Origin: an uncultured Actinomycetota bacterium
Lineage (GTDB): Bacteria > Actinomycetota > Humimicrobiia > Humimicrobiales > Humimicrobiaceae
Direction: 5' to 3'
DNA: 64,000 nt
Assembly: GCA_964595565.1 (NCBI GenBank)
Contig: CAZQQX010000002.1
Span: 3,502 to 67,501, forward strand
The translations under genes were made by a program, and so were the position numbers. Below, one piece after another: positions 32,122 to 49,393 of the stretch; the first letter of the stretch is position 1, and each line of letters starts with the position of its first letter. The notes under the pieces were generated by a model that was not told the origin of the DNA, searched no databases, and saw only the letters and a program-made list of their open reading frames with translations.

Positions 32122-33222
32122 TTATTTTTTTAAATTTTTAATTAAACTAACAAACTTACCAAAAATGTATCTTGAGTCATGCGGGCCGGGTTTCCCTTCC
32201 GGATGAAATTGTATGGTATATGCATTTATTTTTTTGTATTGTAATCCTTCAACAGTACCATCGTTAAGATTGATATGCGTTATACCACAATCAGTGCCCT
32301 TGATATTTTTTAATGACCCTTCACTAACGGCAAAACCGTGGTTCTGGGATGTTATTTCAACTTTTCCCGTTTCCAGATTTTTAACCGGATGATTACCACC
32401 ATGATGACCAAATTTTAACTTATAAGTCTTTGCCCCCAGAGCAATTGCAAGGAGCTGATGCCCCATACAAATCCCGAATATCGGCTTCCTGCCAATTAAT
32501 TTTTTAATTGTATCAATTGCATAATTTAAAGCTGAAGGGTCACCCGGACCATTGGACAGCAGTATACCATCGGGGTTATATTTTAATATCTCCCCTGCTT
32601 CAGTAGAAGCCGGCACAACAATTAACCTGAACCCTTCCCAGTCCAGGCACTTTAAGATACCCATTTTTACTCCGAAATCCATCGCAACAACTACATATTT
32701 ATAATCACTAATGCCGGGGTTGTAAATATATGGCTTACTGCAGGTAACATTTTTTACCAGGTCACTTTTAATAATAGATGGATAATCATCAAGCTTTCTT
32801 TTTAATTCACACCTGTCATCAGTTTCAGTAGAAATAATACCTTTCATTGAACCCTCAAGCCTGATATGTCTGGTCAATTGCCTGGTATCTATTCCTTCAA
32901 TCCCCACAATATTATTCTTTTTTAAATAATCCTGAAGATTGCCTTCCGCTCTCCAGTTAGAGTAGAAATCAAAACACTCCTTTACAATCAAACCCCTGGC
33001 CTGTATTTTATCTGATTCAACATCCATACTATTTACGCCATAATTTCCAATCTCGGGATAGGTCATTACCACAATCTGTCCATAATAAGAGGGGTCTGTT
33101 AACACTTCCTGGTAACCAATCATTGAAGTATTAAACACTACTTCACCAATTGTTTCTCCGCTGCATCCTATATTTTTACCCTTAAATATCATCCCGTCTT
33201 CTAAAATCAAATTTACTTCCAA
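32122..33222 (-). CDS. carA: carbamoyl-phosphate synthase small subunit (glutamine amidotransferase)
   Basis: 366 aa; GICMGHQLL catalytic Cys, HH dyad near the C-terminus. Confidence 0.95.
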   Translation of the reverse strand: MEVNLILEDGMIFKGKNIGCSGETIGEVVFNTSMIGYQEVLTDPSYYGQIVVMTYPEIGNYGVNSMDVESDKIQARGLIVKECFDFYSNWRAEGNLQDYLKKNNIVGIEGIDTRQLTRHIRLEGSMKGIISTETDDRCELKRKLDDYPSIIKSDLVKNVTCSKPYIYNPGISDYKYVVVAMDFGVKMGILKCLDWEGFRLIVVPASTEAGEILKYNPDGILLSNGPGDPSALNYAIDTIKKLIGRKPIFGICMGHQLLAIALGAKTYKLKFGHHGGNHPVKNLETGKVEITSQNHGFAVSEGSLKNIKGTDCGITHINLNDGTVEGLQYKKINAYTIQFHPEGKPGPHDSRYIFGKFVSLIKNLKK

Positions 33223-33226
33223 AATT

Positions 33227-34540
33227 TTATCCTTCTTTCCTGATGTTACTCACGTTATAAACTAACTTACCCCCGCTAATCGTGCAGATTATCTTCCCCA
33301 TTAATTTATGCCCGATAAAAATACTATTTTTACTTTTGGAAACAATATTTTCTTTTTTTACCTTTTCTTCTTTTTCTGTATCTATAACTGTTATATTGGC
33401 GATCTCCCCAACTTTTATTTTCCCTGCATTAACGCCAATTATCCTGGACGGCGAGGTGGTAATTAAATTTATAAATTTAGACAGGCTTATTTTTTCCTCT
33501 ACACATAATTTAGTAAAAGCGGCACTAAAAAGTGTCTCCAGGCCTATGGTCCCGAAGCTGGCAAGCCTGAATGTTGTATTTTTTTCTATATCCAGATGAG
33601 GCGCATGGTCACTTACTATAGCGTCAATAACTCCTTTTTTTATGCCCTCAATCAGTGCCTGCCTGTCTTCCTCGCTTCTTATAGGCGGCTTAACTTTAAA
33701 GTTGGTATTAAAAGTCGTAAGGTAACTATCATTAAAAAAAAGATGATGGGGTGTTACATCACAGGTTATATTTACCCCTTCGTCTTTTGCTCTCTCTATC
33801 ATTTCCACACTACCCCTGGTGCTCAAATGAGTCACATGAATCCTGGCGCCGCTTTTTTTGGCCAGGGCGATATCCCTGGATATCATTAAATCGTCACTCA
33901 AACTGGATATACCCTGCAGGCCCAGCATAGTTGAGTAGTAGCCTTCATGGACAAGACCCTCGCCGGAGATAAAATCATCCTCTTCATGTAAAATTAATGG
34001 CAGACCAAACTGCCTGGAATAGCGCATGATTTCATACATTATCTTACTATCTCTCACGCACATACCATCGTCAGAAAAACCAGCTGCACCTGCCTCCGAC
34101 ATAAGCCCCATTTCAGTAATATCTTTCCCTTCAAGCCCCCTGGTCATAGCAGCTACCGGCAGCACCCTGCACGCCGCACCTCTGGATTTCTCCAGAACGT
34201 ATTTTACCAGAGACTGGTTATCTATAACCGGCCTGGTATTGGCCATACAGGCAACTGTAGTTACTCCTCCCTTAACTGCTGCCTCTGCCCCCGACTCAAT
34301 CGTTTCTTCATTTTCAAATCCCGGTTCTCTGAAATGCACATGCATATCCACAAATCCCGGTGATATGACACAGCCCTCTGCATCAATTTCTATTACATCA
34401 TTTTCCGTGCTTTTGATTTCTTTTTTTATCCCGGTTATAATACCATCTCTTACCAGAATATCGGAGTAAAAGTCCTTTCCCTGCAACAGGTCAATTATCC
34501 TGCCTGATTTTATAAGAATATTTTTATTATTATTCATCAT
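33227..34540 (-). CDS. pyrC: dihydroorotase
   Basis: 437 aa; DMHVHFREPG metal-binding motif, amidohydrolase fold. Confidence 0.9.
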   Translation of the reverse strand: MMNNNKNILIKSGRIIDLLQGKDFYSDILVRDGIITGIKKEIKSTENDVIEIDAEGCVISPGFVDMHVHFREPGFENEETIESGAEAAVKGGVTTVACMANTRPVIDNQSLVKYVLEKSRGAACRVLPVAAMTRGLEGKDITEMGLMSEAGAAGFSDDGMCVRDSKIMYEIMRYSRQFGLPLILHEEDDFISGEGLVHEGYYSTMLGLQGISSLSDDLMISRDIALAKKSGARIHVTHLSTRGSVEMIERAKDEGVNITCDVTPHHLFFNDSYLTTFNTNFKVKPPIRSEEDRQALIEGIKKGVIDAIVSDHAPHLDIEKNTTFRLASFGTIGLETLFSAAFTKLCVEEKISLSKFINLITTSPSRIIGVNAGKIKVGEIANITVIDTEKEEKVKKENIVSKSKNSIFIGHKLMGKIICTISGGKLVYNVSNIRKEG

Positions 34541-34564: not shown

Positions 34565-35485
34565 TTAACTTAATATCAAATAAAGTATCGCCATTCTTAC
34601 GGCTACCCCATAAGTAACCTGGTAGTTAATCACTATTTTTTCTCCCTGACTGCCCCCTGTTTCCATAACTTCATCACTGATTTCTATCCCCCTGTTAACC
34701 GGTCCGGGATGCATAACTATGGAGCCGGGTTTCATTCTTTTCAACCTATCCATATTCAGGCTTAAAAACCGGTTATATTCCATTATTGACGGATAAAATT
34801 TTCTATCCTGCCTCTCAAATTGCATCCTTAGCATATAGATGATATCAGATTCCCCTATAACATCATCTATACAGTGCTTCACGCTCATTTTTGAAAAATC
34901 CTCCGGAAGAAGCATTGTCGGTGAAACTATGGTTACTTTCATACCCATCTTTTCAAATAAATCTAAATTAGATTTTGCCACCCTGCTATTTATAAAATCA
35001 CCAACAATGGCTGCCCTGAGATTCTCAAAATTCCCAAATCTCTTTTTTATGGTATACAAATCAAGCAGAGCCTGGGTGGGATGCTGATATTTTCCATCGC
35101 CTGCATTTATTACAGGAACTTTTACAATCCGGTCCACCATTTTAATTGTCCCGCTGTCGCTGTGCCTTATAATAACCAGGTCAACATTCATGGAAAGAAT
35201 CGTTTTCAAGGTGTCAATAATAGATTCTCCTTTTACAATACTGCTGTTAGAGGAAGAAAAATTTATTATATCTGCACTGAGTCTCTTGGCGGCTATCTCA
35301 AACGAACTTTTAGTTCTTGTACTGGGCTCAAAAAACAGGTTGACTATTGTTTTACCTCTCAGGGCCGGAACCTTTTTTACATCCCTTCCTGATATTTCAA
35401 GAAAGGAATCTGCATTTGAAAGTATTAACTTAATATCTTCAGGACTGAGACTTTTTGAATCTATTATACTTTTTTTCCTTAACAT
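34565..35485 (-). CDS. pyrB: aspartate carbamoyltransferase catalytic subunit
   Basis: 306 aa; STRTKSSFE, HPTQALLD motifs. Confidence 0.95.
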   Translation of the reverse strand: MLRKKSIIDSKSLSPEDIKLILSNADSFLEISGRDVKKVPALRGKTIVNLFFEPSTRTKSSFEIAAKRLSADIINFSSSNSSIVKGESIIDTLKTILSMNVDLVIIRHSDSGTIKMVDRIVKVPVINAGDGKYQHPTQALLDLYTIKKRFGNFENLRAAIVGDFINSRVAKSNLDLFEKMGMKVTIVSPTMLLPEDFSKMSVKHCIDDVIGESDIIYMLRMQFERQDRKFYPSIMEYNRFLSLNMDRLKRMKPGSIVMHPGPVNRGIEISDEVMETGGSQGEKIVINYQVTYGVAVRMAILYLILS

Positions 35486-35487
35486 TA

Positions 35488-36024
35488 TTACTCCTTACCC
35501 GAAACCGTAACGCTATCCACTCCATCAGTTTCCTTTAATTTAACTTCCACAGACTCATTTCTTGAGGTAGGAAGGTTTTTCCCCACATAATCAGCCCTTA
35601 TGGGAAGTTCCCTGTGCCCCCTGTCTATTAAAACTACGAGCTGTATTGACTTCGGCCTTCCAAAATCAATCAGAGCATCCATAGCCGCCCTTACTGTCCT
35701 TCCGGTATACAGGACATCATCAACAAGAATTACATTCTTACCCTCTATATCAAAAGTAATATCGGTTATCTGCGCCGCAGGTTTAATATTATGCCCGATA
35801 TCATCTCTGTAAAAGGTTATATCAAGCTTACCGCTCTGAATTTTTATTCCCTCAAATTTTTCAATATTTTCGGCTATTCTATTTGCAAGCGGCACCCCTC
35901 TCTTCTGAAGACCAATAAAAACCAGATTCTCCGGCCCTTTATTCCTTTCAAGTATCTCATGCGAAATTCTTCTGATTACCCTGTCTATATCACTTTCACC
36001 TAATATATATGCCTTTTCTTTCAT
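35488..36024 (-). CDS. pyrR: bifunctional pyr operon regulator / uracil phosphoribosyltransferase PyrR
   Basis: 178 aa; PRTase fold ([13 protein letters not shown]); first gene of the pyr operon. Confidence 0.9.
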
Positions 36025-36232: not shown

Positions 36233-36583
36233 TTAACCAATATTTTTTCTCAGCTGCCTCAACTTGTAGTTTAAATCGCCCTTGCCTCTTTCTCCCTTAT
36301 AGCCATGGCCACCTTCACGGGAGTTAAAGTTACCTTTATTCTGAGTTCTCGCTTCATTAACTACAATAGTTCTTCCCTTAAATTCACTCTTATTAAACTT
36401 TTCTACGGCTGCTTTTGCCTGTTCCTCAGTTTCCATCTCCACAAATCCAAATCCTCTTGATTTCCCATCCATTCTGGTAATTACCTTTGAATAAGTAACA
36501 GTTCCTTCCTGAGAAAATAAATCCTCAAGTTCTTTATCTGTTGTGCCATAATCCAGATTACCTACATACATTCTTTTATTCAC
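36233..36583 (-). CDS. RRM-type glycine-rich RNA-binding protein
   Basis: RNP-2 YVGNL and RNP-1 RGFGFVEM motifs; Gly/Arg-rich tail; likely start at the MYVGNL Met (36571). Confidence 0.8.
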   Translation of the reverse strand: MNKRMYVGNLDYGTTDKELEDLFSQEGTVTYSKVITRMDGKSRGFGFVEMETEEQAKAAVEKFNKSEFKGRTIVVNEARTQNKGNFNSREGGHGYKGERGKGDLNYKLRQLRKNIG

Positions 36584-36956
36584 TTAAAAATACCTTTCTT
36601 TAAATTGCTTTTTTTATATATAAAAGAGAAGTAGAAATTATATTAATTTAATTGTGGAACAAAAGAAACAAGAAGAATAAAAGAAGACTTTCTTCTATTT
36701 TATTTAATCGCCCAATAAAAATTCCTACTACTCCATTTTAAAAATAAAAACTATTAAAGTACTGGTTCATTATTATATATTATATTTTTAATTTGTCCAA
36801 AGATTATTTTTCCCATAAAAAATACACTTTTCAACCATACTTTTCAAAAAGCTTGATTCTTTTATTATCCTGGCTTTTTTATTACTACAAATCTGCGGAG
36901 CCATTCATTACCATAATTTTAACTTGATTTAAGCTTGATTTATTTATATCACCTTA

Positions 36957-38251
36957 TTATGGTTCAACAACTTTGCCCATGAACAGGATAGCTCCACTCC
37001 TGTCATCGGCAATTACAAAGAAAAATGGCCTGTTTACTACAAACTCTATTACTTCCTCAACCGGCATTGCTGATTCAAGCATCTCTACTACGGTAGCAGC
37101 TGCAGCCTCACTCCCTTTTTCATTAACCTCAATGACAGCTTTGTGAAGCACCTCAGATATCCAGGGACTATCACAAGATTCACAGTAAAAAATACCGCTG
37201 AAATCAGCCCTGCCCGGATCAAAGGCAATACCCATACCCATTTTAATCAACACATCATTTAAAAGCTTGATGCTATATTCCATCTTATACCGGGGCATAA
37301 CCAGAGAAATCTGACTTGCGTGGAACGACTTCTTTATTTCATTCCATTTCTCCGAATCCAGTGATTCAATTACCGCATCAACACTTATACCCTCATCGGG
37401 AAGGATTATATACATGGCCATCTTTTCCTGACCATAGGGAAGCCTTACACCTGAAAAGTTATCACCCCTGCAGTAGCCAGAATTTTCCTCCTGTGACATC
37501 ATGGGAACTTTTTTGGTAGTTCCATCACTGAGATAGAAATCGTCGTCAGCAGTCAGGTTCTCATCAAAGGGGTAAGTCCAGTTTCCTTTAAAATATATAG
37601 CATTTATAAGATACATAACCGTATCTGTCGGTATTTCTGAAATCATCTTATCAATCTTTCCCCGGGTTTTTCCCTCTATCCATCTGTTTATAGTGACTAC
37701 TGCATCATGTGAAGAAAAATCAATTTCTTTAACTTCGGAATTAAAATATTTACTGTTTCTTTCAATAAAATCCTCTTTGACTTTATCGCCCGGTCTGTAC
37801 CAGATGGAATTAGCAATAGAAAGTACTATATTACTATCTGCATTTTTAATGCTGATCAGAAGATTGTGGAACCCGGAATTAAGCTCCTCAGGGTCAAATC
37901 CCTTAAACTCAAGAGTTTCTGCCATGGCCAGGCTGGTATCACCTGCCGCTCCGTTATAGGTCATTGCCAGGGCAAGAAGTATTGACAGAGGAGATATAAA
38001 AACACTCCTGCCACTGTCTTCTGAAATAAGCTCTTTAAAAAATTTAAATCCGAATGCGGTATTTGAATCAACCAGACTCCTATCAACAGAAGATGCTACT
38101 TCATCCGACTGCCCGGCACTAATTTTTCATCCGGATATTCATCTACAGTTCCCCTATCTTCCACGGAACACCCTGCAGATAGGGCTGTTCCCGTAAATAG
38201 TATGGCAAAAGATAAAACACCAAGAAACCGTAGCAATCTATCTTTTTTCAT
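36957..38251 (-). pseudogene. lipoprotein serpin (serine protease inhibitor) with reading frame interrupted in an A5/T5 run; either a frameshifted gene or a homopolymer sequencing error
   Basis: Track ORF 36957..37964 (335 aa) ends ...RPFFFVIADDRSGAILFMGKVVEP with the RCL hinge GSEAAAATVV, both serpin hallmarks. The same frame stays open upstream to 38126, reading KISAGQSDEVASSVDRSLVDSNTAFGFKFFKELISEDSGRSVFISPLSILLALAM (serpin helix A). An ATG at 38251 in the -1 frame encodes MKKDRLLRFLGVLSFAILFTGTALSAGCS (lipobox LSAGC) and hits TAG at 38096-38098. Adding one A to the gaaaaatt run (forward 38121-38128) joins the two frames into a ~431-aa serpin. Confidence 0.6.
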
Positions 38252-38362
38252 ATTGATTCCCCGGTTAATATTATAAATCCATAATATAATACGCAGTACA
38301 ATATAAAATTATTAAGGGTGCAAAATATCAATTCTGGAAAGCAACTGCTCGGTTATAAAAAG

Positions 38363-39067
38363 TTAACGGGTGACTCCAGACAATTCTATTTTTAATTTTG
38401 ACTCCCCCGTTTTTATGAATAATGAGTGTTCTCTGACTTCCCCGGGCTCAAATTCATCCAGTGAAACCACCTCCGTACTTGACTCACTATTATCTGAAAG
38501 CAACATGACCATTTCCATTGTTCCACTGAAGTTTAATGAAGTACCCACATTATTTAATTTAATTCTTAAACTTATATCATCTATAACTTTATATGAAAAA
38601 TTAATAATTCCTCCAATATTATCCTGTGCCTCTTTCTGCTCGATAAAAGAATAGGTCTTTTCAAAAAAAATATCTTTTTCTTCCAGTGCTTCGGAACTGG
38701 CAGCTGCTTCGGAGCTTTCTTCTCTGGCTTCCCCGACTATTACCTCATCTGCTGCTTCTTCTACTGCCGACTCCCTGATAATTATATCCCCGGCTGTGAA
38801 AGTATCCTCTTTTGAAACAGTATATTTCATGTACCAGACGCCAAAAACAGATGCCGCAATCAAAATAATTGCCACAGAAGCTGCCATGGAAAAATTTTTA
38901 ATTAATTTTATGTTAGATACAAGAGGTTTGTACTCATACTCCTCACTAACGGTAATCTCATCCCCCAGCTCAAATACTCCTGAAGGGATTTTCTGTTTTA
39001 AGAACTGTCCGTCCCTGGTTAAAACTACACAGTAATCCCTGCCTATCTCCATTATTATTGCTTTCAT
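38363..39067 (-). CDS. rsgI: anti-sigma-I factor RsgI-like (RsgI_N domain, TM helix, acidic linker, uncharacterised ~100-aa extracytoplasmic domain)
   Basis: N-terminus MKAIIMEIGRDYCVVLTRDGQFLKQKIP matches the RsgI N-terminal domain; single TM (AASVAIILIAASVFGVWYM); start overlaps the sigI stop (ATGA). Confidence 0.7.
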   Translation of the reverse strand: MKAIIMEIGRDYCVVLTRDGQFLKQKIPSGVFELGDEITVSEEYEYKPLVSNIKLIKNFSMAASVAIILIAASVFGVWYMKYTVSKEDTFTAGDIIIRESAVEEAADEVIVGEAREESSEAAASSEALEEKDIFFEKTYSFIEQKEAQDNIGGIINFSYKVIDDISLRIKLNNVGTSLNFSGTMEMVMLLSDNSESSTEVVSLDEFEPGEVREHSLFIKTGESKLKIELSGVTR

Positions 39068-39762
39068 TTCTCGCCACTCCTTGAGATTCCTACATAGCCC
39101 AGGTTATTTATAATTGCCAGAACCATTGCTATTATATATATTCGTCCCCGCTCCAGTTTTTTGCGGTGTACCCATAAAATATCTTCAAGTTTTTTTAATG
39201 GAAGCTTCTTTTTCTCCATCAGGGTTTTTAAAATGTCTTTGTTTTCAACCACTGTCATCGCTACTTTTTTGTATTCTTCTCTCAAGTTTTCATTTTTGGG
39301 AGATATTTCCGCAAGTTCTTCCAGGGTTATTCCCCACTTCTCCAGTTCTGCTCTATATTCAATTATTTCCAGCAACCTTTTTTGTTTTTCATCATCTATC
39401 CGGTACTGTTCTAAAGAAACTTCCCCTTTATCATCAAAATTTACAGAAGAAAAATCTCTTTTAATACCAGAAGCTCCCTTTTTATTCTGTTTACGGTAAT
39501 AATCAATAAGCCTCATATTTATTACCAGCCTGGCAAAACTCAGAAACTTCCCCTTTTTTATATTAAACGAATCCATTGCTTCTTTAAAAGCAGAGAGCCC
39601 AACCGAAAGTTCTTCATCTACTCCATATTCAAGAAACCTTCCTGACCTTTTTTGGGCCACACTGGCAATAAATGGCTTAAATTCAGAAATTAACCTGCTT
39701 GTCTCATTTTTATCTTTTCTTACCTCAATTACTCTACTCTCAAGAGATTGTCTGTGAAACAC
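39064..39762 (-). CDS. sigI: RNA polymerase sigma factor SigI-like (sigma-70 family, region 2 + SigI-type C-terminal domain)
   Basis: 232 aa, GTG start after AAGGGAGAAG; FKPFIASVAQKRSGR...DEELSVGLSAFKEAMDSFNIKKGKFLSFARLVINMRLIDYYRK is region 2-like; paired with an RsgI_N anti-sigma gene. Confidence 0.75.
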   Translation of the reverse strand: MFHRQSLESRVIEVRKDKNETSRLISEFKPFIASVAQKRSGRFLEYGVDEELSVGLSAFKEAMDSFNIKKGKFLSFARLVINMRLIDYYRKQNKKGASGIKRDFSSVNFDDKGEVSLEQYRIDDEKQKRLLEIIEYRAELEKWGITLEELAEISPKNENLREEYKKVAMTVVENKDILKTLMEKKKLPLKKLEDILWVHRKKLERGRIYIIAMVLAIINNLGYVGISRSGEK

Positions 39763-39807
39763 CTGATTACTTCTCCCTTTATTAATTAAAGTAACAATTT
39801 GTTTGAT

Positions 39808-39836
39808 ATTATAGAATAACTTAAACTTTTTATAAA
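39808..39836 (-). promoter_or_regulatory. candidate sigma-A promoter for sigI (TTTATA - 17 nt - TATAAT on the minus strand)
   Basis: Minus-strand TTTATA (39836-39831), 17-nt spacer, TATAAT (39813-39808); ~45 nt upstream of the sigI GTG. Confidence 0.3.
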
Positions 39837-39891: not shown

Positions 39892-40395
39892 ATGGATGTA
39901 AAACTTCTTATAACTTACGACCCGGCTCATCTTGAGAGCAGCAGAGAAAAAGTTTTAAATTTATTTAAAGAAATAAATTCAAAACCAACATTCCTGAAAT
40001 CAAAATACAGCGGAATTTTTCTTCTTTATGTTTCTAAACCAAAGGATGTCGTAAAGAAATTAAGAGAAATTTCAAAAAAGAATAAAGATTTATTTGGTAG
40101 AACATGCCGTTATATTCCTGTAGATAAGTGGGTCAGGTCCAGTGTAACCGAAATGCAAAAAGCAATAAAATCACTTGTCCCAAAAATAAAAAAAGAAGAG
40201 AAATGGATGATGGACCTGGAGAAAAGGCATTATGACAAGATGAGCTTTCAGGAACTTATTGTGAAGCTTACCGATGTGGTCAATCGTGAAAAAATAGATT
40301 TGAAAAAACCACAAAAAATTATAAAAGTTGAAATTATAGGAAAAGATGCGGGAATATCGCTCCTTGAGCCTGCTGAAATACTTACAGTATCCTGA
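39892..40395 (+). CDS. hypothetical protein, possibly a stand-alone THUMP-like RNA-binding protein
   Basis: 167 aa; AAGGAGG 7 nt upstream of the ATG; the C-terminal KIIKVEIIGKDAGISLLEP pattern resembles THUMP domain ends; the assignment rests on pattern memory only. Confidence 0.35.
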   Translation: MDVKLLITYDPAHLESSREKVLNLFKEINSKPTFLKSKYSGIFLLYVSKPKDVVKKLREISKKNKDLFGRTCRYIPVDKWVRSSVTEMQKAIKSLVPKIKKEEKWMMDLEKRHYDKMSFQELIVKLTDVVNREKIDLKKPQKIIKVEIIGKDAGISLLEPAEILTVS

Positions 40396-40398
40396 TAT

Positions 40399-41148
40399 TT
40401 ACCTTTTTTTTCTTTTTCTAAAATATTTAAAAAACCTGTCCTGGTACTGTTCAAACAATCCCCATCTGTCCAGCTCCTGCTTCAGTTCAATCGGCTCAAT
40501 TTCTCCTTTTTCGAATAATTTAAAAAGAATTTCTATCTCATTTCTGGCTATAATCGGATATCCCATTCTGTCACGGGTAATAACAGGAAATCCTTCGTTG
40601 CCAACCCTTACTGTACTATTCCGCAACAGGTCCGGTAACTGAGAGTAATAAGCACTTTTATTAACGATTTCCTGAATAAATTTAGAAAGCGAAACATCCC
40701 AGAATTCATCCACTCCCTTAATAACTGCACTGTAAGAATCTTTTTTCCTTTCAATGTCACCGGTTATATTTCTGGCCACTGAAGCAATTGAATTAGAAAC
40801 TATCTCCATTTTTTCAAAGTCACGGCTCATTCTCAAACCATACAGAATCATAGCCAGGTCGGCATCCTCTTCAGCAAGTATCTCAAAGGCCTTCCTGGCT
40901 TCTCCGCTAAATCCTTCCACTCTCAGCATATATGAAGGCGTTATAACCTTTGGCCTCTGCCATACTATTCTTCCTTCCCTGATCACTGTTTCAGCAACGG
41001 AACTCCTTCCCTCAAACTCAAGATACATAGGAGTTGTTAGCATATAATAATGTATAGTCGTAGAATCAAATGAGGCAAGCATTTTATCGGGGTGCCTTAT
41101 AATTTCCGTATCCTGTATAACTTTTTTGATTTTTTCTTCCAGTTCCAT
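40399..41148 (-). CDS. hypothetical protein (249 aa, basic C-terminal tail KYFRKRKKR); no recognisable family
   Basis: Long uninterrupted ORF with coding-like composition, convergent with the THUMP-like gene (4-nt gap). Confidence 0.5.
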   Translation of the reverse strand: MELEEKIKKVIQDTEIIRHPDKMLASFDSTTIHYYMLTTPMYLEFEGRSSVAETVIREGRIVWQRPKVITPSYMLRVEGFSGEARKAFEILAEEDADLAMILYGLRMSRDFEKMEIVSNSIASVARNITGDIERKKDSYSAVIKGVDEFWDVSLSKFIQEIVNKSAYYSQLPDLLRNSTVRVGNEGFPVITRDRMGYPIIARNEIEILFKLFEKGEIEPIELKQELDRWGLFEQYQDRFFKYFRKRKKR

Positions 41149-41592: not shown

Positions 41593-42513
41593 TTGGAAAT
41601 TATAAAAAGAAAGTTACCGGTATTTTTTATTATTTTGACTCTTGCATTATCAATTATTGCAATTATGCCCGCTGCATTACTTGCACAGGAAGAAGAAACA
41701 TCAGAAGAAGAATTTATTCCCGAGCCCGAACCGGAAGAATTGTCTTTTGAAACTACCCTTCCTAAAATACAGGCCGAAGAAGGAGAAACATTTAATTTTG
41801 ATTTCACTGTAATTTATAAGGCCGGCGACGAACCCTTTGGCCTTGATGAAAATACGAAAACAAAGCCCTTTGACATAACAGTTGACTACCCGACAGGCTG
41901 GATTGCAGCAGTGGCAAAAGGAACCACAGAAGCCCGCACCATTAATCTGGAATCAGGCAGTACGGAAAGCCTTAAACTTGTCGCAGCACCAAGAACATCG
42001 CAGGAACCCGGAGAATATAACTTTACAGTTACTTTTAAGTCTGCTATCGAGGGAGACCCTCTGGAAGAATCCATGGAATTCACAGCAGTAATAACTGCAA
42101 CTTATGAAATAAGCCTTACCACGAAAACCGGGAGATTGAGTACCGACATTACTTCCGGTAAAGATAATCATTATAAACTGGTCCTGGCCAATAACAGCTC
42201 TACATCTGTAGAGAATATAAGTTTAACTTCAACAGAACCCGAGGGCTGGCAGGTTGATTTTGATAATAAAGAAATTGATATAATAGAAGCCGGAGAAGAA
42301 AAGGAGATTGATGTAGTTATAAATCCTCCTGAAAAAACTATTGCAGGCGATTATATATTAACTTTCAAAGCTTCCAGCGAAAATAGTAACGACGAAATTG
42401 AATTAAGGGTTACTGTGGAAACTTCTACTATCTGGGGCATTGTAGGCATAGGAATCATTGTTATAGTTATAGTCGGCGTTGCCATAATCTTTACAAGATT
42501 GGGAAGAAGATAA
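41593..42513 (+). CDS. cell-surface protein with signal peptide, acidic linker, tandem NEW3/COG1470-like beta-sandwich domains and C-terminal TM anchor
   Basis: TTG start after AAGGAGAGG; signal peptide LTLALSIIAIMPAALLA; domain pattern ...NFTVTFKSAIEGDP... / ...YILTFKASSENSN...; C-terminal IWGIVGIGIIVIVIVGVAIIF-RLGRR; first gene of a 3-gene operon with an ABC transporter. Confidence 0.6.
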   Translation: MEIIKRKLPVFFIILTLALSIIAIMPAALLAQEEETSEEEFIPEPEPEELSFETTLPKIQAEEGETFNFDFTVIYKAGDEPFGLDENTKTKPFDITVDYPTGWIAAVAKGTTEARTINLESGSTESLKLVAAPRTSQEPGEYNFTVTFKSAIEGDPLEESMEFTAVITATYEISLTTKTGRLSTDITSGKDNHYKLVLANNSSTSVENISLTSTEPEGWQVDFDNKEIDIIEAGEEKEIDVVINPPEKTIAGDYILTFKASSENSNDEIELRVTVETSTIWGIVGIGIIVIVIVGVAIIFTRLGRR

Positions 42514-44765: not shown

Positions 44766-45731
44766 TCATTTATTCATATTGTATCTCCTCCTCAGAACCT
44801 TAAGGCACCCAAGCAGATCATTGGACAATTTATCTTCAATTACCATCTTCTCTCCTGTCACAGGATGACGCAATTCCAGCCTGCACGAATGTAAAAATTG
44901 CCTGTCCAGTCCCAGTTCATTTGCCAGGCTCCTTGAACCACTGTTCCCGTATAAATCATCCCCTATCACAGGGTGCCCGATATAACTTAAGTGTACCCTT
45001 ATTTGATGTGTCCTGCCCGTTTTTGGAAATACATTTAATAATGTAGAACTCTTGAATTCTTCTGCAGCCTCAAACCCGGTTACTGCATCCCTTCCTCTGT
45101 CAATTGATATACTCATTTTTTTTCTATCCATTCTGGAGCGGCCTATTGGAAGAATAATCTCACCCTTTTTCTCCGAGAACTTACCCCATACCAGCGCAAT
45201 ATAAGTTTTTTTTACCTGCCTGTTTTTGAATTTCTCCGATAATATTCTGTGAGTATGGTTATCTTTTGCTATTATAAGCAGCCCCGAAGTATTCTTATCA
45301 AGCCTATGAACAATTCCCGCCCTACTTCTGCCAGAAAGGTCTGATAATTTTTCGTAATGGTAAAGCAGTGCGTTAACAACCGTATCTTTATTTAAACCCG
45401 GAACAGGATGTGTTATCATTCCCGGCTCTTTGGATATAACAAGAAGATACTCATCTTCATATACTACCTTAAGATTTATCTTTTGTGCCTCTATCAAAGC
45501 ATCAGACTGCTTCTCTTCAGAAAAATCTATCACAATTGCATCATTTTCAATAACTCTGTAGTGCTTACTTACAGATTTGCTATTTACTCTCACCTTCTCT
45601 TTGCTTATTATATTCTGAATGTAGCTTCTTGAGACATCTTTTATTCTAGAAGTTAAAAATTTATCAATCCTCTGGCCCTCACTTCCGGTATCTACTATAA
45701 AACTTAAAACACTTTCGTCTTTCTTACTCAA
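44766..45731 (-). CDS. rluD: 23S rRNA pseudouridine synthase, RluA/RluD family
   Basis: 321 aa; S4 domain N-terminus, catalytic HRLDKNTSGLLIIAKD; lspA-rluD synteny. Confidence 0.85.
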   Translation of the reverse strand: MSKKDESVLSFIVDTGSEGQRIDKFLTSRIKDVSRSYIQNIISKEKVRVNSKSVSKHYRVIENDAIVIDFSEEKQSDALIEAQKINLKVVYEDEYLLVISKEPGMITHPVPGLNKDTVVNALLYHYEKLSDLSGRSRAGIVHRLDKNTSGLLIIAKDNHTHRILSEKFKNRQVKKTYIALVWGKFSEKKGEIILPIGRSRMDRKKMSISIDRGRDAVTGFEAAEEFKSSTLLNVFPKTGRTHQIRVHLSYIGHPVIGDDLYGNSGSRSLANELGLDRQFLHSCRLELRHPVTGEKMVIEDKLSNDLLGCLKVLRRRYNMNK

Positions 45732-46224
45732 CTCCTCTTAATCTTCTTTTCACGAAATATTCTTTAAGTATTATTATTATAGTAAAACAAAAGCCTATAT
45801 TAATAAATAGGTCAGCGACATTAAACACCGCCCCAAAAAAAGTAAAATTAAAAAAATCAGTAACTTTACCGGCGAAATATCTATCAACAAGGTTGCCCAG
45901 CGCACCTCCCAGAATAAAACCCAGTGATATATTGTAGAAAACAGAATTAATCTTGAGTATAGTTTTTAAAAGAACTATTAAAAAAATAGCTATAATCGAT
46001 ATTACAGTCAGAACTTTTGTATACCCCTGAAACAACCCAAAAGCTGCACCGGTATTATTTATATGGGTTATATAAAAAAAACCTTTTATTATTTCTATTG
46101 AGCTATTAACCGGAAGTTTCTGGATTACAAGGTATTTAGTTACCTGGTCAATTACCATTATACAAATACCGGTGATTATAAAATATAAATTCATAAAAAT
46201 ATTTCTTCTTGTTATTCTATTCAT
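45724..46224 (-). CDS. lspA: lipoprotein signal peptidase (SPase II)
   Basis: 166 aa; 4 TM segments, NTGAAFG and FNVAD motifs. Confidence 0.85.
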   Translation of the reverse strand: MNRITRRNIFMNLYFIITGICIMVIDQVTKYLVIQKLPVNSSIEIIKGFFYITHINNTGAAFGLFQGYTKVLTVISIIAIFLIVLLKTILKINSVFYNISLGFILGGALGNLVDRYFAGKVTDFFNFTFFGAVFNVADLFINIGFCFTIIIILKEYFVKRRLRGVE

Positions 46225-46225
46225 T

Positions 46226-49200
46226 TTAACTTATACTTCCCACAACCCTCAGGCCAATTTTTACCTGTTTACCATTCACATTTACTTTTTTTACAAACAT
46301 ATCTTCCTTAAAATCAGAACCCATTGATTTGCTCAGGGTTTCCTTCATTATATAATTTCTATATTTCTCCAATATACTTTCTTTTATACCAGGCCCCAGA
46401 GCAAGTTCTATGATATTTTCTATCTGGAAACCTGCTTCCTTTCTTAAATTCTGTATCTGATGGACCAGTTCCCTGCAAAACCCTTCTTCCAGTAAATCCT
46501 CCGATATCATGGTAGGAAGACCCACATTAAATACACCATCGCTCTCCACGCCGAAACCTTCTTTATTCTTTATCTCAACAATTACCTCTTCAGACAATAT
46601 TTCTATTTGCTTTCCACCAATCATTAAATTAATATTTTTATTATTTTTAACCCTTAGTGCAGTATTCACTGGATTTTCAGAAAATAACGACTCCTTTATC
46701 GAATTAACCATACTACCATACTTTCTGCCCAGCAACGGGAGATTTGGCTTTATATTATAAGAAACCAGTTCATTTATATCCCCTACAAACTCAATATCCC
46801 TGACATTAAGCTCACTGGTAATAATATCCTTAAAATAATTAATAGCTTCCTTCTTCCTGTCATCTTTTTCAAAATATACAAGCACCTTCTCAACTGGCTG
46901 TCTGACTTTAATATTTACCTTATTTCTTATCGCCCTGCCAAGATTGACCACTTTTCGTGCCGTATCCATTTTAAAACTAAGGTCCTTATCTATAACGCTT
47001 TCATCAGCCTCGGGGTAATTTTCCAGGTGCACACTCTCCTCACCTTTCCCCGGACTTCCTGCAAGGTTCTTGTAAATTTCTTCACTCATGAATGGTATAA
47101 AAGGAGCACATAAAATAGAAACATTTACCAGGCATTCATAAAGAGTTTTATAGGCGCTTATTTTATCCCTGTCTTCTTCACTTTTCCAGAATCTTCTCCT
47201 ACTTCTCCTTACATACCAGTTTGAAAGAGTATCAACAAAATTTTGAATTTCCCTCCCGCTTTCAGTAACATTAAAATTATCCATTAAATCATTAACTTTT
47301 TTTATAGTCCGGTTGAGCTCCGATAGTATCCACCGGTCAAGTTCAAATCTGTCCTTTACTTCAAGCTCGTAATTGTAAGGATTAAAATTATCTATATTGG
47401 CATAAATTACAAAAAAAGTATAAGTGTTCCAGAGGGTAAGCATAAATTTCCTTATCACCTCATCAACTGCTCTCATTGAAAAGTTTTTTGGCAGCCACGG
47501 GGATACCCCTGTAAAGAAATACCATCTCAGGGCATCTGCTCCCTGTTTATTTAAAATATCCCAGGGGTTTATAACATTTCCCCTTGATTTGGACATTTTT
47601 TGTCCTTTTTCATCATTTATCAGACCAAGACACAGTACATTTTTGTAACAGGATTTTTTAAAAAGTAATGTGGAAATGGCAAGAAGAGTATAAAACCATC
47701 CCCTGGTCTGGTCAATTGCTTCGCAGATAAAATCTGCAGGAAAACTTTCCTTAAATAACTCTTCATTTTCAAAAGGATAATGATACTGAGCATAAGGCAT
47801 TGACCCGGAATCAAACCACACATCTATTACTTCGGGCACTCTTTTCATATCTTTGCCACATACAGGACATTTTATTATGATATTATCCACATAAGGCCTG
47901 TGCAGGTCCAGATTTTCGGGCAGGTTAACTGCCTTCTCTTTTAGTTCCTCTATGCTTCCTATGCAAATTTTATGGCCATCTTCATCCATCCATACAGGAA
48001 GTGGCGTACCCCAGTATCTTTCTCTGGTAAGAGCCCAGTCAATATTATTTTCAAGCCACTTCCCGAACCTTCCATATTTTATATGCCCGGGATACCAGCT
48101 TATTTCTTCATTAGATTTTAAAAGCTCATCCTTTATCCCGGAAGTTTTTATGTACCAGCTCTTTTTTGCATAGTACATTAACCTGCTATCACACCTCCAG
48201 CAAAAAGGATACGAGTGCCTGATTTTTTTAATATCAAAAAGCAATTTTCTTTCTTTTAGATCTTCAATTATTTTAGAATTTGCCTCTTCAGCATTTAAGC
48301 CGGCAAATTTTCTTACCTCTTTTTTAAACCTGCCTCCTTCATCCACCATCTGTACAACAGGCAGATTATTTTCCCTCCCGGCGTTCATATCATCCTCCCC
48401 AAAGGCAGGGGCAATATGAACAATTCCTGTACCTTCTTCAATGGATACAAAATCCCCTGCAATAATTTTAAAAGCATTGCTGTTACCACCGGCATAATCA
48501 TAAACAGGTGTATACTTTGAGAAAATAATTTCACTGCCCTTAAAAGTGGAATTAACATTATATCCTGAACCTTCCCCTAGAACTTCCTGCAGTAAACTCT
48601 CTGCCAGTATTAAATTTTCGCCCTTAAAATTGACCTCTGCATAATCAGATTCCCTGTTTACTGCTGCAGCCACGTTTGATATTAAAGTCCATGGAGTTGT
48701 GGTCCATACAAGAAAATATGTATTATCTTTTCCGTCAAAGGGGAATTTTACCATTATAGAGAGATCTTCTACTTCTTTATATCCCTGGGCTATCTCATGG
48801 GATGAAAGTGCAGTCCCGCACCTGGGACAGTAAGGAACAATTTTATAGTCCCGGTACAATAAGTTGTTCTCCCATATTTTTTTCAATATCCACCATACAG
48901 TTTCAATATAATCATTCTTATAGGTCAGATAAGCATTATCCATATCCAGCCAGAACCCTATGCGTTCGGTAAGTTTTTCCCATTCCCCTTCATATTCCAT
49001 AACATTCTGTCTGCACAGATTATTAAATTTCTCTATGCCAATTTCTTCTATTTCTTTTTTTGAGTTAATGTTTAACTCTTTTTCAACTTCTATTTCTACA
49101 GGAAGCCCGTGCGTATCCCACCCTGCTTTTCTCGGCACATAATAACCCTTCATGGTTTTATATCTGGGAAAAATGTCTTTATAAACACGTGAAAGGACAT

Positions 49201-49393
49201 GATGAACACCGGGTGCTCCATTGGCAGTAGGTGGCCCTTCGTAGAATACAAATTTTTCTTTACATTCATTTTTTTTCAGGGTTTTTTCAAAAATATTATT
49301 TTCTTTCCAGAACTTTAGAATTTTTTTTTCCAGTTTTACCAGATCTACATTGCTGTTAACTTTTTTAAACATACCTTTTACCCTTATTATCAA
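46226..49393 (-). CDS. ileS: isoleucyl-tRNA synthetase
   Basis: 1055 aa; HIGH-type PTANGAPGVHHVLS, KMSKS, CP1 editing domain. Confidence 0.95.
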   Translation of the reverse strand: MIIRVKGMFKKVNSNVDLVKLEKKILKFWKENNIFEKTLKKNECKEKFVFYEGPPTANGAPGVHHVLSRVYKDIFPRYKTMKGYYVPRKAGWDTHGLPVEIEVEKELNINSKKEIEEIGIEKFNNLCRQNVMEYEGEWEKLTERIGFWLDMDNAYLTYKNDYIETVWWILKKIWENNLLYRDYKIVPYCPRCGTALSSHEIAQGYKEVEDLSIMVKFPFDGKDNTYFLVWTTTPWTLISNVAAAVNRESDYAEVNFKGENLILAESLLQEVLGEGSGYNVNSTFKGSEIIFSKYTPVYDYAGGNSNAFKIIAGDFVSIEEGTGIVHIAPAFGEDDMNAGRENNLPVVQMVDEGGRFKKEVRKFAGLNAEEANSKIIEDLKERKLLFDIKKIRHSYPFCWRCDSRLMYYAKKSWYIKTSGIKDELLKSNEEISWYPGHIKYGRFGKWLENNIDWALTRERYWGTPLPVWMDEDGHKICIGSIEELKEKAVNLPENLDLHRPYVDNIIIKCPVCGKDMKRVPEVIDVWFDSGSMPYAQYHYPFENEELFKESFPADFICEAIDQTRGWFYTLLAISTLLFKKSCYKNVLCLGLINDEKGQKMSKSRGNVINPWDILNKQGADALRWYFFTGVSPWLPKNFSMRAVDEVIRKFMLTLWNTYTFFVIYANIDNFNPYNYELEVKDRFELDRWILSELNRTIKKVNDLMDNFNVTESGREIQNFVDTLSNWYVRRSRRRFWKSEEDRDKISAYKTLYECLVNVSILCAPFIPFMSEEIYKNLAGSPGKGEESVHLENYPEADESVIDKDLSFKMDTARKVVNLGRAIRNKVNIKVRQPVEKVLVYFEKDDRKKEAINYFKDIITSELNVRDIEFVGDINELVSYNIKPNLPLLGRKYGSMVNSIKESLFSENPVNTALRVKNNKNINLMIGGKQIEILSEEVIVEIKNKEGFGVESDGVFNVGLPTMISEDLLEEGFCRELVHQIQNLRKEAGFQIENIIELALGPGIKESILEKYRNYIMKETLSKSMGSDFKEDMFVKKVNVNGKQVKIGLRVVGSIS

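Follow-up and report, generated by a model that had tools for sequence, protein, structure and literature searches.

The locus described here raises the question of whether a sigma factor/anti-sigma factor pair of the SigI/RsgI type controls the gene for a surface-anchored protease inhibitor. It occupies positions 36,957 to 39,836 of a 64,000-nt stretch of DNA (the window; contig CAZQQX010000002.1 of assembly GCA_964595565.1) from an uncultured Actinomycetota bacterium and contains, all on the minus strand, sigI, rsgI and a serpin gene. SigI is found widely among Bacilli and Clostridia (PMC10575876). SigI/RsgI pairs serve as models of how autoproteolysis and mechanical force carry signals across membranes, and so far are known from these two groups, where they sense cell-wall defects or plant polysaccharides. 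The reading preferred here, with a probability of roughly 0.55, is that the locus is a SigI/RsgI envelope-signalling cassette specific to the class Candidatus Humimicrobiia, with a membrane-tethered inhibitory serpin encoded by its local output gene. Such a cassette would extend SigI/RsgI to an uncultured actinobacterial class, to a surface serpin as output and to an RsgI that operates without a SEAL domain (described below). In the genome of the window, the serpin gene is most likely a recent pseudogene, with sigI and rsgI still intact.

Identity and order of sigI, rsgI and the serpin gene

The sigI gene (39064-39762, minus strand; GTG start) encodes a 232-aa protein that scores 209.2 bits against NCBIfam TIGR02895 (cut-off 185) and 24.5 bits against Pfam Sigma70_r2 (cut-off 24). 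Residues 21-221, including the VHRK...RxYIIA region, align to SigI1 of Clostridium thermocellum (8i23_F, E-value: 1.9e-23), and the protein also aligns over both domains to SigI6 of that species; open complexes of SigI1 and SigI6 are available from cryo-electron microscopy. With region 2 and the SigI-specific C-terminal domain both present, and a score above the curated cut-off, the protein belongs to the SigI family. The cognate rsgI lies directly downstream, overlapping the sigI stop codon through a 4-nt ATGA, and this arrangement is kept in all related loci. The initial annotation had placed both genes and their translational overlap correctly, and its assignments to the SigI, RsgI_N and serpin families are borne out by scores of 209, 47 and 394 bits, respectively.

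RsgI (38363-39067, minus strand) is a 234-aa protein with an N-terminal RsgI_N domain (aa 1-50, 38918-39067; 47 bits, cut-off 25). In an AlphaFold2 model (mean predicted local distance difference test score [pLDDT] of 72), this domain is followed by a single transmembrane helix (aa 53-82, 38822-38911), a disordered acidic linker (about aa 83-128, 38684-38821; pLDDT <50) and an extracytoplasmic beta-sandwich of eight strands (aa 131-233, 38369-38677; pLDDT >90). The linker differs in both length (35-60 residues) and sequence among orthologues. Among 1.84 billion proteins, this beta-sandwich is represented only 12 times, in 10 cases with the same RsgI architecture of approximately 220-240 aa.

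In characterised RsgI proteins, a juxtamembrane alpha/beta SEAL domain undergoes self-cleavage between a conserved Asn and Pro, and the step under regulation is that in which force pulls the two SEAL fragments apart (PMC10556640, PMC9732909). The protein encoded here has no N-P dipeptide in its sequence and no alpha/beta fold in its model, in which residues 81-127 or so are disordered and residues 131-233 are all-beta. Its profile has no match among solved RsgI ectodomains at an E-value of 1 or below. As modelled, it is an RsgI_N anti-sigma factor with a different, lineage-restricted ectodomain design. With this architecture the SEAL mechanism is unavailable, so activation must occur by some other step.

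The serpin body scores 393.7 bits against Pfam Serpin PF00079 and covers profile positions 2-370 of 370. Its best solved relative is miropin (5ncs, E-value: 3e-81), and tengpin is also among the closest structures. The hinge and reactive-centre loop (37062-37121, minus strand) read E-K-G-S-E-A-A-A-A-T-V-V-E-M-L-E-S/A-M-P, where the slash separates P1 from P1'. By the canonical spacing count, which is the sole basis for these assignments, P15 is the Gly at 37115-37113 and P1 the Ser at 37073-37071. The inhibitory-type hinge G-S-E-A-A-A-A-T, noted initially as GSEAAAATVV and confirmed in the sequence, is conserved across the 120 best homologues. Hinges of this type have Gly at P15, Ser or Thr at P14 and small residues at P12-P9. 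P1 in these homologues, counted in the same way, is Ser, Thr or Ala; P4-P1' follow the pattern M-(L/V/M)-E-(S/T)-A, so that P1 is small. The signal peptide of the window ends in L-S-A-G-C, in agreement with the PROSITE lipobox pattern. Of the 120 homologues, 117 have a Cys after the signal peptide; a canonical lipobox is found in only 55, and many read LFTQC. The enzyme for lipoprotein processing is encoded within the window by lspA (Peptidase_A8; 45724-46224, minus strand). An initial remark that bacterial serpins are uncommon was overstated, as more than 6000 of 8000 candidates examined are homologues at an E-value of 0.001 or below.

The nearest relatives of the window are metagenome-assembled genomes (MAGs) labelled Actinomycetota, Candidatus Hydromicrobium or Candidatus Humimicrobiaceae, and their class, Candidatus Humimicrobiia, comprises uncultured low-GC Actinomycetota. 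With the serpin as query, sigI-rsgI was found directly upstream of the serpin gene in 11 of 11 species-level MAGs with enough upstream sequence (L008-L020; serpin identity 62-85%). With the RsgI alignment as query against metagenome contigs, a serpin gene was found after rsgI in approximately 30 more loci with room downstream. The proposal had originally been made to depend on recurrence of this gene order in relatives, and the order does recur. All relatives with the trio belong to Candidatus Humimicrobiia. No sigI or rsgI adjoins the serpin genes of Bacillota, Bacteroidota, Verrucomicrobiota and Poribacteria (L023-L030), and no serpin gene accompanies more distant SigI/RsgI pairs (50% identity or less).

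The trio is also kept in loci with different genes on its flanks. In L054, a GH130 gene lies upstream, and an FkbM-type methyltransferase gene and two unannotated open reading frames (ORFs) lie downstream; L071 and L081, which also have different flanks, represent a more distant lineage (SigI approximately 56% identical). Conversely, L040 (2349-2612) has kept sigI-rsgI and lost the serpin gene, with the RRM gene directly after rsgI. Between the window and L008, the ratio of nonsynonymous to synonymous substitutions (dN/dS) is 0.15-0.20 for sigI, rsgI and the serpin gene (dS 0.43-0.47, dN 0.06-0.10); the flanks have dS values of 0.07-0.33 and dN values of at most 0.03. The trio was considered as a single recombined block because its dS is approximately three times that of the flanks, but sliding identity between the window and L008 is mosaic, with divergence peaks in the sigI interdomain linker, the RsgI ectodomain, the rsgI-serpin spacer and the serpin N-terminus, and no claim of recombination is made.

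Several loci carry additional genes. In L009 (4853-7320), a 2.7-kb segment encoding an ABC ATPase, an ABC-2 permease and a TetR-like regulator is inserted between rsgI and the serpin gene. In L071 (2747-6097) and L081 (4168-6458), the SigI-type motif after rsgI (see below) heads a gene for a DUF4349 lipoprotein, which is followed by the serpin gene; in L071 a DUF3298/PdaC-domain lipoprotein gene comes next, and the L081 contig ends too early to show one. In L082 (2242-4238), a second serpin gene (45% identity) and a small lipoprotein gene are located upstream of sigI.

Promoter-like elements

Upstream of sigI, the only conserved promoter is a sigma-70-like one (39808-39836, minus strand; TTTATA-17-TATAAT, 10 of 12 matches), which sits in a block (gaTTTATAaaaag...ttatnnTATAATatca) conserved in 11 related loci. 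This region contains no CGWA element and no SigI-type promoter, so that the SigI-type promoter initially sought there is not present. SigI-type motifs are found instead in the rsgI-serpin spacer and inside sigI.

The 111-nt gap between rsgI and the next start codon (ATG at 38251), the other place where such a promoter had been sought, does contain a conserved motif (38280-38320, minus strand; cACCCttaataattttatattgtactgCGTAttatat), with CGTA at 38293-38290, 42 nt before the ATG. In the related loci, the rsgI-serpin spacers (70-289 nt) cannot be aligned apart from this one block. The motif can be written taCCccg-N19-CG(T/A)ATATAT and has a C-rich -35 region 25 nt from the -10 region. Counting from CGWA, (t)aCC occupies -25 to -23 in every species, often as taCCCCg, and is followed by CG(T/A)ATATATAT. 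A pattern search detects a motif in 42 of 44 loci; the exceptions are the twins L048 and L049, and L048, the one inspected, reads CGTG. In L009 the serpin gene retains the element (CGTATATAT) 44 nt upstream of its start codon despite the 2.7-kb insertion. In L040 the spacer promoter has been lost along with the serpin gene.

The published SigI consensus is C-----AAA-13/14N-CGWA in clostridia and ACCCCC--AA-15N-CGAA----T in Bacillales (PMC4711584). The spacer motif fits the Bacillales form in its distance of 25 nt from the A to CGWA, its C-run, its CGWA and its T at +8. Its -10 region resembles the CGaAtataTat often read in C. thermocellum SigI promoters (PMC4711584, Tables 1 and 2). Promoters of extracytoplasmic function (ECF) sigma factors generally have an AAC -35 element 16-17 nt upstream of a CGT -10 element (PMC6056542). 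An ECF-type promoter was rejected because the spacer motif has no AAC and its conserved (t)aCC at -25 to -23 lies 19-22 nt before CGWA, which is too long.

A second element of the same bipartite form and register lies within the 3' end of sigI (39131-39170, minus strand; TACACCGcAAAAAActggagcggggaCGAATATATATAAT), where CGAA has its C at position 39144 and the sigI stop codon follows 81 nt later. This copy carries the A-tract and fits the clostridial form C-----AAA-13N-CGWA. It is present in 55 of 55 sigI homologues (36 distinct sequences, down to 46% identity), and L040 keeps it although the serpin gene and the spacer motif are lost there. The codons at the site (CGA-ATA-TAT-ATA-ATA) are invariant, whereas other invariant Arg columns of sigI use two to six codons, and no Arg codon is rarer in the window than CGA (1.3% of 689). 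The TA before CAC is likewise kept in nearly all 36 distinct sequences although the encoded residue varies between V, L and I, the exception being L058 (ATG). The site would be an instance of overlapping coding and regulatory constraint held against codon bias. It could serve rsgI as a SigI-dependent promoter and, by read-through, the serpin gene. No convincing intrinsic terminator was found between rsgI and the serpin gene or after the serpin gene.

A position weight matrix (PWM) derived from SigI promoters published for C. thermocellum places the internal site first among matches in the window (score 16.9), but not above the maxima from shuffled sequences; the serpin-side site, which has no A-tract, is not picked up. 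The second-best match (42324-42356, plus strand; tcctcctgAAAaaactattgcaggCGATtatatatta, score 13.0) is located at the 3' end of the NEW3 gene, before an ABC ATPase gene; as its score is below the mean of shuffled sequences, it is probably a chance match. Extra copies of CGWATATAT (one mismatch) and CC-N22-CGWATATAT (two mismatches) occur in the window at chance frequency, and the internal site is the sole exact match. A PWM built from the whole 40-nt span of the serpin-side sites was over-fitted to the spacer, missed the site of the window itself and was discarded.

Taken together, these elements suggest that sigI-rsgI is transcribed from a housekeeping-type promoter, and that the SigI-type promoters serve rsgI (from inside sigI) and the serpin gene. 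A regulatory link from sigI-rsgI to the serpin gene appears somewhat probable, the dependence on SigI being read from the similarity and position of the motifs. The regulon would be compact, with two promoters, one of which lies inside a coding sequence and is maintained against codon bias.

Two characterised systems are the closest points of comparison. The SigI-RsgI pair of Bacillus subtilis reacts to cell-wall and heat stress and has a regulon of lytE, mreBH, bcrC and sigI-rsgI. Shared with it are the SigI-family factor with an overlapping downstream rsgI, the RsgI_N domain, single transmembrane helix and extracytoplasmic disordered region of RsgI, and the promoter geometry ACCCC(C)-N19/20-CG(A/T)A----T. 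Unlike the B. subtilis protein, the RsgI described here has no SEAL domain or N-P autocleavage site, and its disordered region lies between the membrane and the beta-sandwich rather than at the C-terminus. The sigI operon here has a sigma-70-like promoter, with the SigI-type motif inside sigI; the local target is a serpin gene rather than genes for cell-wall enzymes, and the host belongs to an actinobacterial candidate class rather than to Bacillota. In C. thermocellum, SigI1-8 and RsgI1-9 are involved in polysaccharide sensing and control cellulosome genes, and rsgI5 and rsgI9 have their own SigI promoter (PMC4711584). Besides the fit of the internal site to the clostridial consensus, the -10 region (CGAATATATAT) resembles those of the cipA, cel9U and cseP promoters. 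Unlike the C. thermocellum systems, which have CBM3, PA14 or GH10 ectodomains and target glycoside hydrolases, the present one has a small lineage-restricted beta-sandwich, no SEAL domain, a single visible SigI/RsgI pair, a protease inhibitor as target and mostly no A-tract in its serpin-side promoters.

A proposed circuit and alternative explanations

The circuit envisaged for the intact cassette would operate in the following way. RsgI would sequester SigI at the membrane via RsgI_N. An event at the cell surface would cause loss of the ectodomain, intramembrane (site-2) cleavage would follow and SigI would be freed. SigI would then transcribe the serpin gene from the spacer promoter, and it would also transcribe rsgI from the promoter inside sigI, a negative feedback that would reset the switch. 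The serpin, lipid-anchored at the outer face of the membrane, would trap serine proteases. Sequestration by RsgI, site-2 cleavage and transcription from CGWA promoters are carried over from the protein families concerned, and the trigger is a proposal.

Several observations weigh against the cassette as interpreted here. The A-tract, which is essential in clostridial SigI promoters, is mostly missing from the serpin-side promoters. In the spacer copy of the window, the C-run/-35 region is shifted by 1 nt and the -10 region reads CGTAtTatat where all relatives have CGTAtAtatat; these changes (38280-38295) may represent decay accompanying the frameshift. The score that the PWM gives to the internal site falls within the spread of maxima from shuffled sequences (mean 15.3, standard deviation 2.1), and as this site encodes RxYIIA, itself conserved in SigI, its conservation is partly due to coding. 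Much of the synteny was inherited together with the flanks, as a block of THUMP, sigI, rsgI, serpin, RRM and pyrR genes. The retention of sigI-rsgI without a serpin gene in L040 means that SigI must have other roles or targets. Lastly, a comparison of RsgI linkers with the reactive loops of their own serpins, relevant to the trigger considered next, was negative (12 shared tripeptides against 12.2 in the null, p=0.59).

The trigger proposed is an extracellular protease that makes a regulated site-1 cut in the RsgI linker, giving a loop with protease as input and inhibitor as output. As there is no SEAL domain, which provides constitutive site-1 cleavage in Bacillus and Clostridium, a regulated site-1 cut is needed, and this favours an extracellular protease. 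Since the output is a protease inhibitor on the same face of the membrane, and the tether of the ectodomain is disordered and exposed, a closed loop would be simplest if a protease, by cutting RsgI, induced its own inhibitor. Even so, a protease as trigger is speculative and rather doubtful. Its fuller form, a protease-sensing switch in which the SEAL-less tether serves as bait, attack by a serine protease frees SigI, and both the inhibitor and RsgI are induced, is unlikely; bait or mimicry between linkers and reactive loops was rejected on the negative comparison given above. If true, this would be the first SigI system for which the signal is proteolysis itself; it would also be the first to have a defined output in a host outside Bacillota.

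The logic of the protease trigger, if it is right, would be that of known systems with regulated site-1 cleavage followed by intramembrane proteolysis (RsiW/PrsW and RsiV/lysozyme of B. subtilis, RseA/DegS of Escherichia coli). Those systems use ECF sigma factors and AAC/CGT promoters with elements 16-17 nt apart, whereas the present one uses SigI and a longer spacing. A closer parallel in function comes from Bifidobacterium breve, in which, according to the account in PMC8012564 (citing Alvarez-Martin 2012), the serpin operon adjoins a two-component system and is protease-inducible, and the serpin is thought to protect against environmental proteases. On that account, both are actinobacterial serpin genes adjoining a dedicated membrane signalling system. 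The B. breve system, as cited there, consists of a histidine kinase and response regulator and its protease induction is demonstrated; that of the cassette is a sigma/anti-sigma pair acting via intramembrane proteolysis, and protease induction is hypothesised. Miropin of Tannerella forsythia is a lipoprotein serpin displayed at the surface of the cell (bioRxiv 10.1101/2025.09.05.674453), so lipoprotein serpins were already known. Miropin differs in having a diderm outer-membrane anchor and no known SigI/RsgI linkage, and the cassette serpin of the window is frameshifted. The initial annotation had described a SigI-serpin pairing as unprecedented; no such link was found in the literature searched, but miropin and the B. 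breve two-component system are precedents for its parts.

It is also possible, though on balance not expected, that the trigger is not a protease: the state of the cell wall or envelope could be sensed through the linker, as it is in B. subtilis, or a polymer or protein ligand through the beta-sandwich, in the manner of the clostridial CBM and PA14 sensors, with the serpin belonging to a general envelope-stress regulon. All characterised RsgI proteins sense cell-wall defects or polysaccharides (PMC9732909, PMC10556640), and the RsgI described here has a disordered region and a beta-sandwich of a kind generally used in ligand binding. The L071 and L081 promoter heads genes for envelope lipoproteins (DUF4349, with DUF3298/PdaC nearby) together with the serpin gene, and both the serpin-less L040 and the negative linker comparison are in keeping with such a role. 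Against this, the known mechanisms need a SEAL domain that cleaves itself at the conserved N-P and is then pulled apart, and both domain and site are absent. The order of domains is also reversed (transmembrane helix, disordered region, fold) relative to known systems (transmembrane helix, SEAL, then disordered region or sensor), and the two sites in the cassette are the sole SigI-type sites in the 64 kb and all flanks.

A further alternative is that the adjacency has no regulatory meaning, an ancestral serpin insertion having been inherited by synteny, with the upstream element read by another sigma factor or a repressor. In most loci the THUMP-to-pyrR block is syntenic as a whole, the serpin-side motif has no clostridial A-tract, and its AT-rich TATATAT could act as a sigma-70 -10 element, with TTGATT at a usable distance in L010. 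Yet the trio outlasts changes of both flanks (L054, L071, L081), and the invariant positions are the C and G of CGWA and the CC at -24/-23, while those expected of a sigma-70 -35 element vary. The same bipartite motif recurs in the same register inside sigI, where it is maintained against codon bias, and L040 lost the serpin gene and the motif together. Adjacency without regulation is thus quite improbable, and a SigI/RsgI cassette with the serpin gene as local output is preferred.

The split serpin gene and the flanking genes

The initial annotation described a single lipoprotein serpin ORF at 36957-38251. A serpin body and a lipoprotein signal peptide are both present there, but they are in different frames. 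The 5' remnant (38096-38251, minus strand) is an ORF of 51 aa with the signal peptide (MKKDRLLRFLGVLSFAILFTGTALSAG/C), closed by a premature TAG (38096-38098). The serpin body (36957-38126, minus strand) is open for 389 codons, and its first ATG, GTG or TTG is found only at 37964, already beyond helix A. The two frames can be joined only within 38099-38126. This interval contains a run of five A residues (38123-38127, minus strand) where relatives have one base more (GAA-A/G-AAATT): orthologues read PDEKISVEESDEV at the deletion point and L008 has GAAGAAATT. Adding one base to the run gives a 431-aa protein with the junction ...PDEK-ISAGQSDEV... (junction peptide of the re-joined frames: DEKISAGQSDEVASSVDR), which matches the orthologues.

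Gene calls on 19 contigs, which come from at least seven independent JGI and Logan samples, show an identical split (51 aa + 335 aa), and three aligned contigs of the same species are identical at the frameshift site. The same break in so many independent samples indicates a real mutation that is fixed in the population and rules out an assembly or sequencing error. Every other species has a single intact serpin ORF (414-441 aa), whereas the gene is broken in the window and in all contigs of the same species. No intact allele with more than 81% identity was found in the protein collection searched. Because the frameshift lies between signal peptide and core, the window gene as written cannot yield a secreted lipoprotein serpin. 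The dN/dS of the serpin body relative to the L008 orthologue (0.17) points to recent inactivation. The genome of the window is a natural case of an output gene lost with the sensor persisting, and the frameshift and the loss in L040 together suggest repeated loss of the output gene.

It is very unlikely that the split gene still yields the full-length lipoprotein by -1 slippage of tRNA-Lys on GAA-AAA-U, or that the frameshift is an artefact: a -1 slip on A-AAA-A would re-pair perfectly and give the exact ancestral peptide (...DEK-ISAGQ...), and the 389-codon body has no further stop and a low dN/dS, but the sequence is identical in at least seven independent Illumina-type assemblies, the shift is absent from every relative (so that this is not a conserved programmed frameshift site), the site is not a canonical X-XXY-YYZ heptamer, a run of five A residues is too short for efficient transcriptional slippage, and the serpin promoter copy of the window is also slightly degraded.

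On the pyrR side of the serpin gene, a 373-nt non-coding stretch (36584-36956) precedes a gene for a small RRM-type RNA-binding protein (36233-36583, minus strand) whose product is 100% identical to that of L008 (dN = 0). This leader, which might be regulatory, includes a strong sigma-70-like site (TGGACA-16-TATAAT, 36799-36772). A PyrR binding site (Rfam RF00515; 36038-36157, minus strand; 59 bits against a gathering score of 54) is located upstream of pyrR (35488-36024), which is followed by pyrB (34565-35485), pyrC (33227-34540) and carA (32122-33222).

On the sigI side, a 167-aa THUMP-domain protein is encoded at 39892-40395 (plus strand) and a 249-aa protein unmatched in Pfam and NCBIfam at 40399-41148 (minus strand); in most relatives both are tightly conserved beside sigI (72-97% identity for the former, 78-96% for the latter). 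A functional connection to the nearby NEW3 surface protein, suggested in the initial annotation, is not sustained, as many loci retain the trio but have no NEW3. A link to NEW3 and its ABC transporter was likewise rejected: NEW3 is found in only six of the relative loci retrieved and is absent from several with 6-8 kb of upstream sequence. Further upstream of the cassette, a class I aminoacyl-tRNA synthetase of approximately 1055 aa (tRNA-synt_1; 46226-49393, minus strand), probably IleS, is encoded beside lspA, as in the classic ileS-lspA-rluD arrangement.

The GC content of the window is approximately 35%, unusually low among Actinomycetota. GC skew is strongly negative nearly everywhere across positions 1-64000 (cumulative -7.3), and the annotated genes examined are mostly on the minus strand. 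The sole reversal of the skew, at approximately 40-44 kb, corresponds to the plus-strand NEW3-ABC operon.

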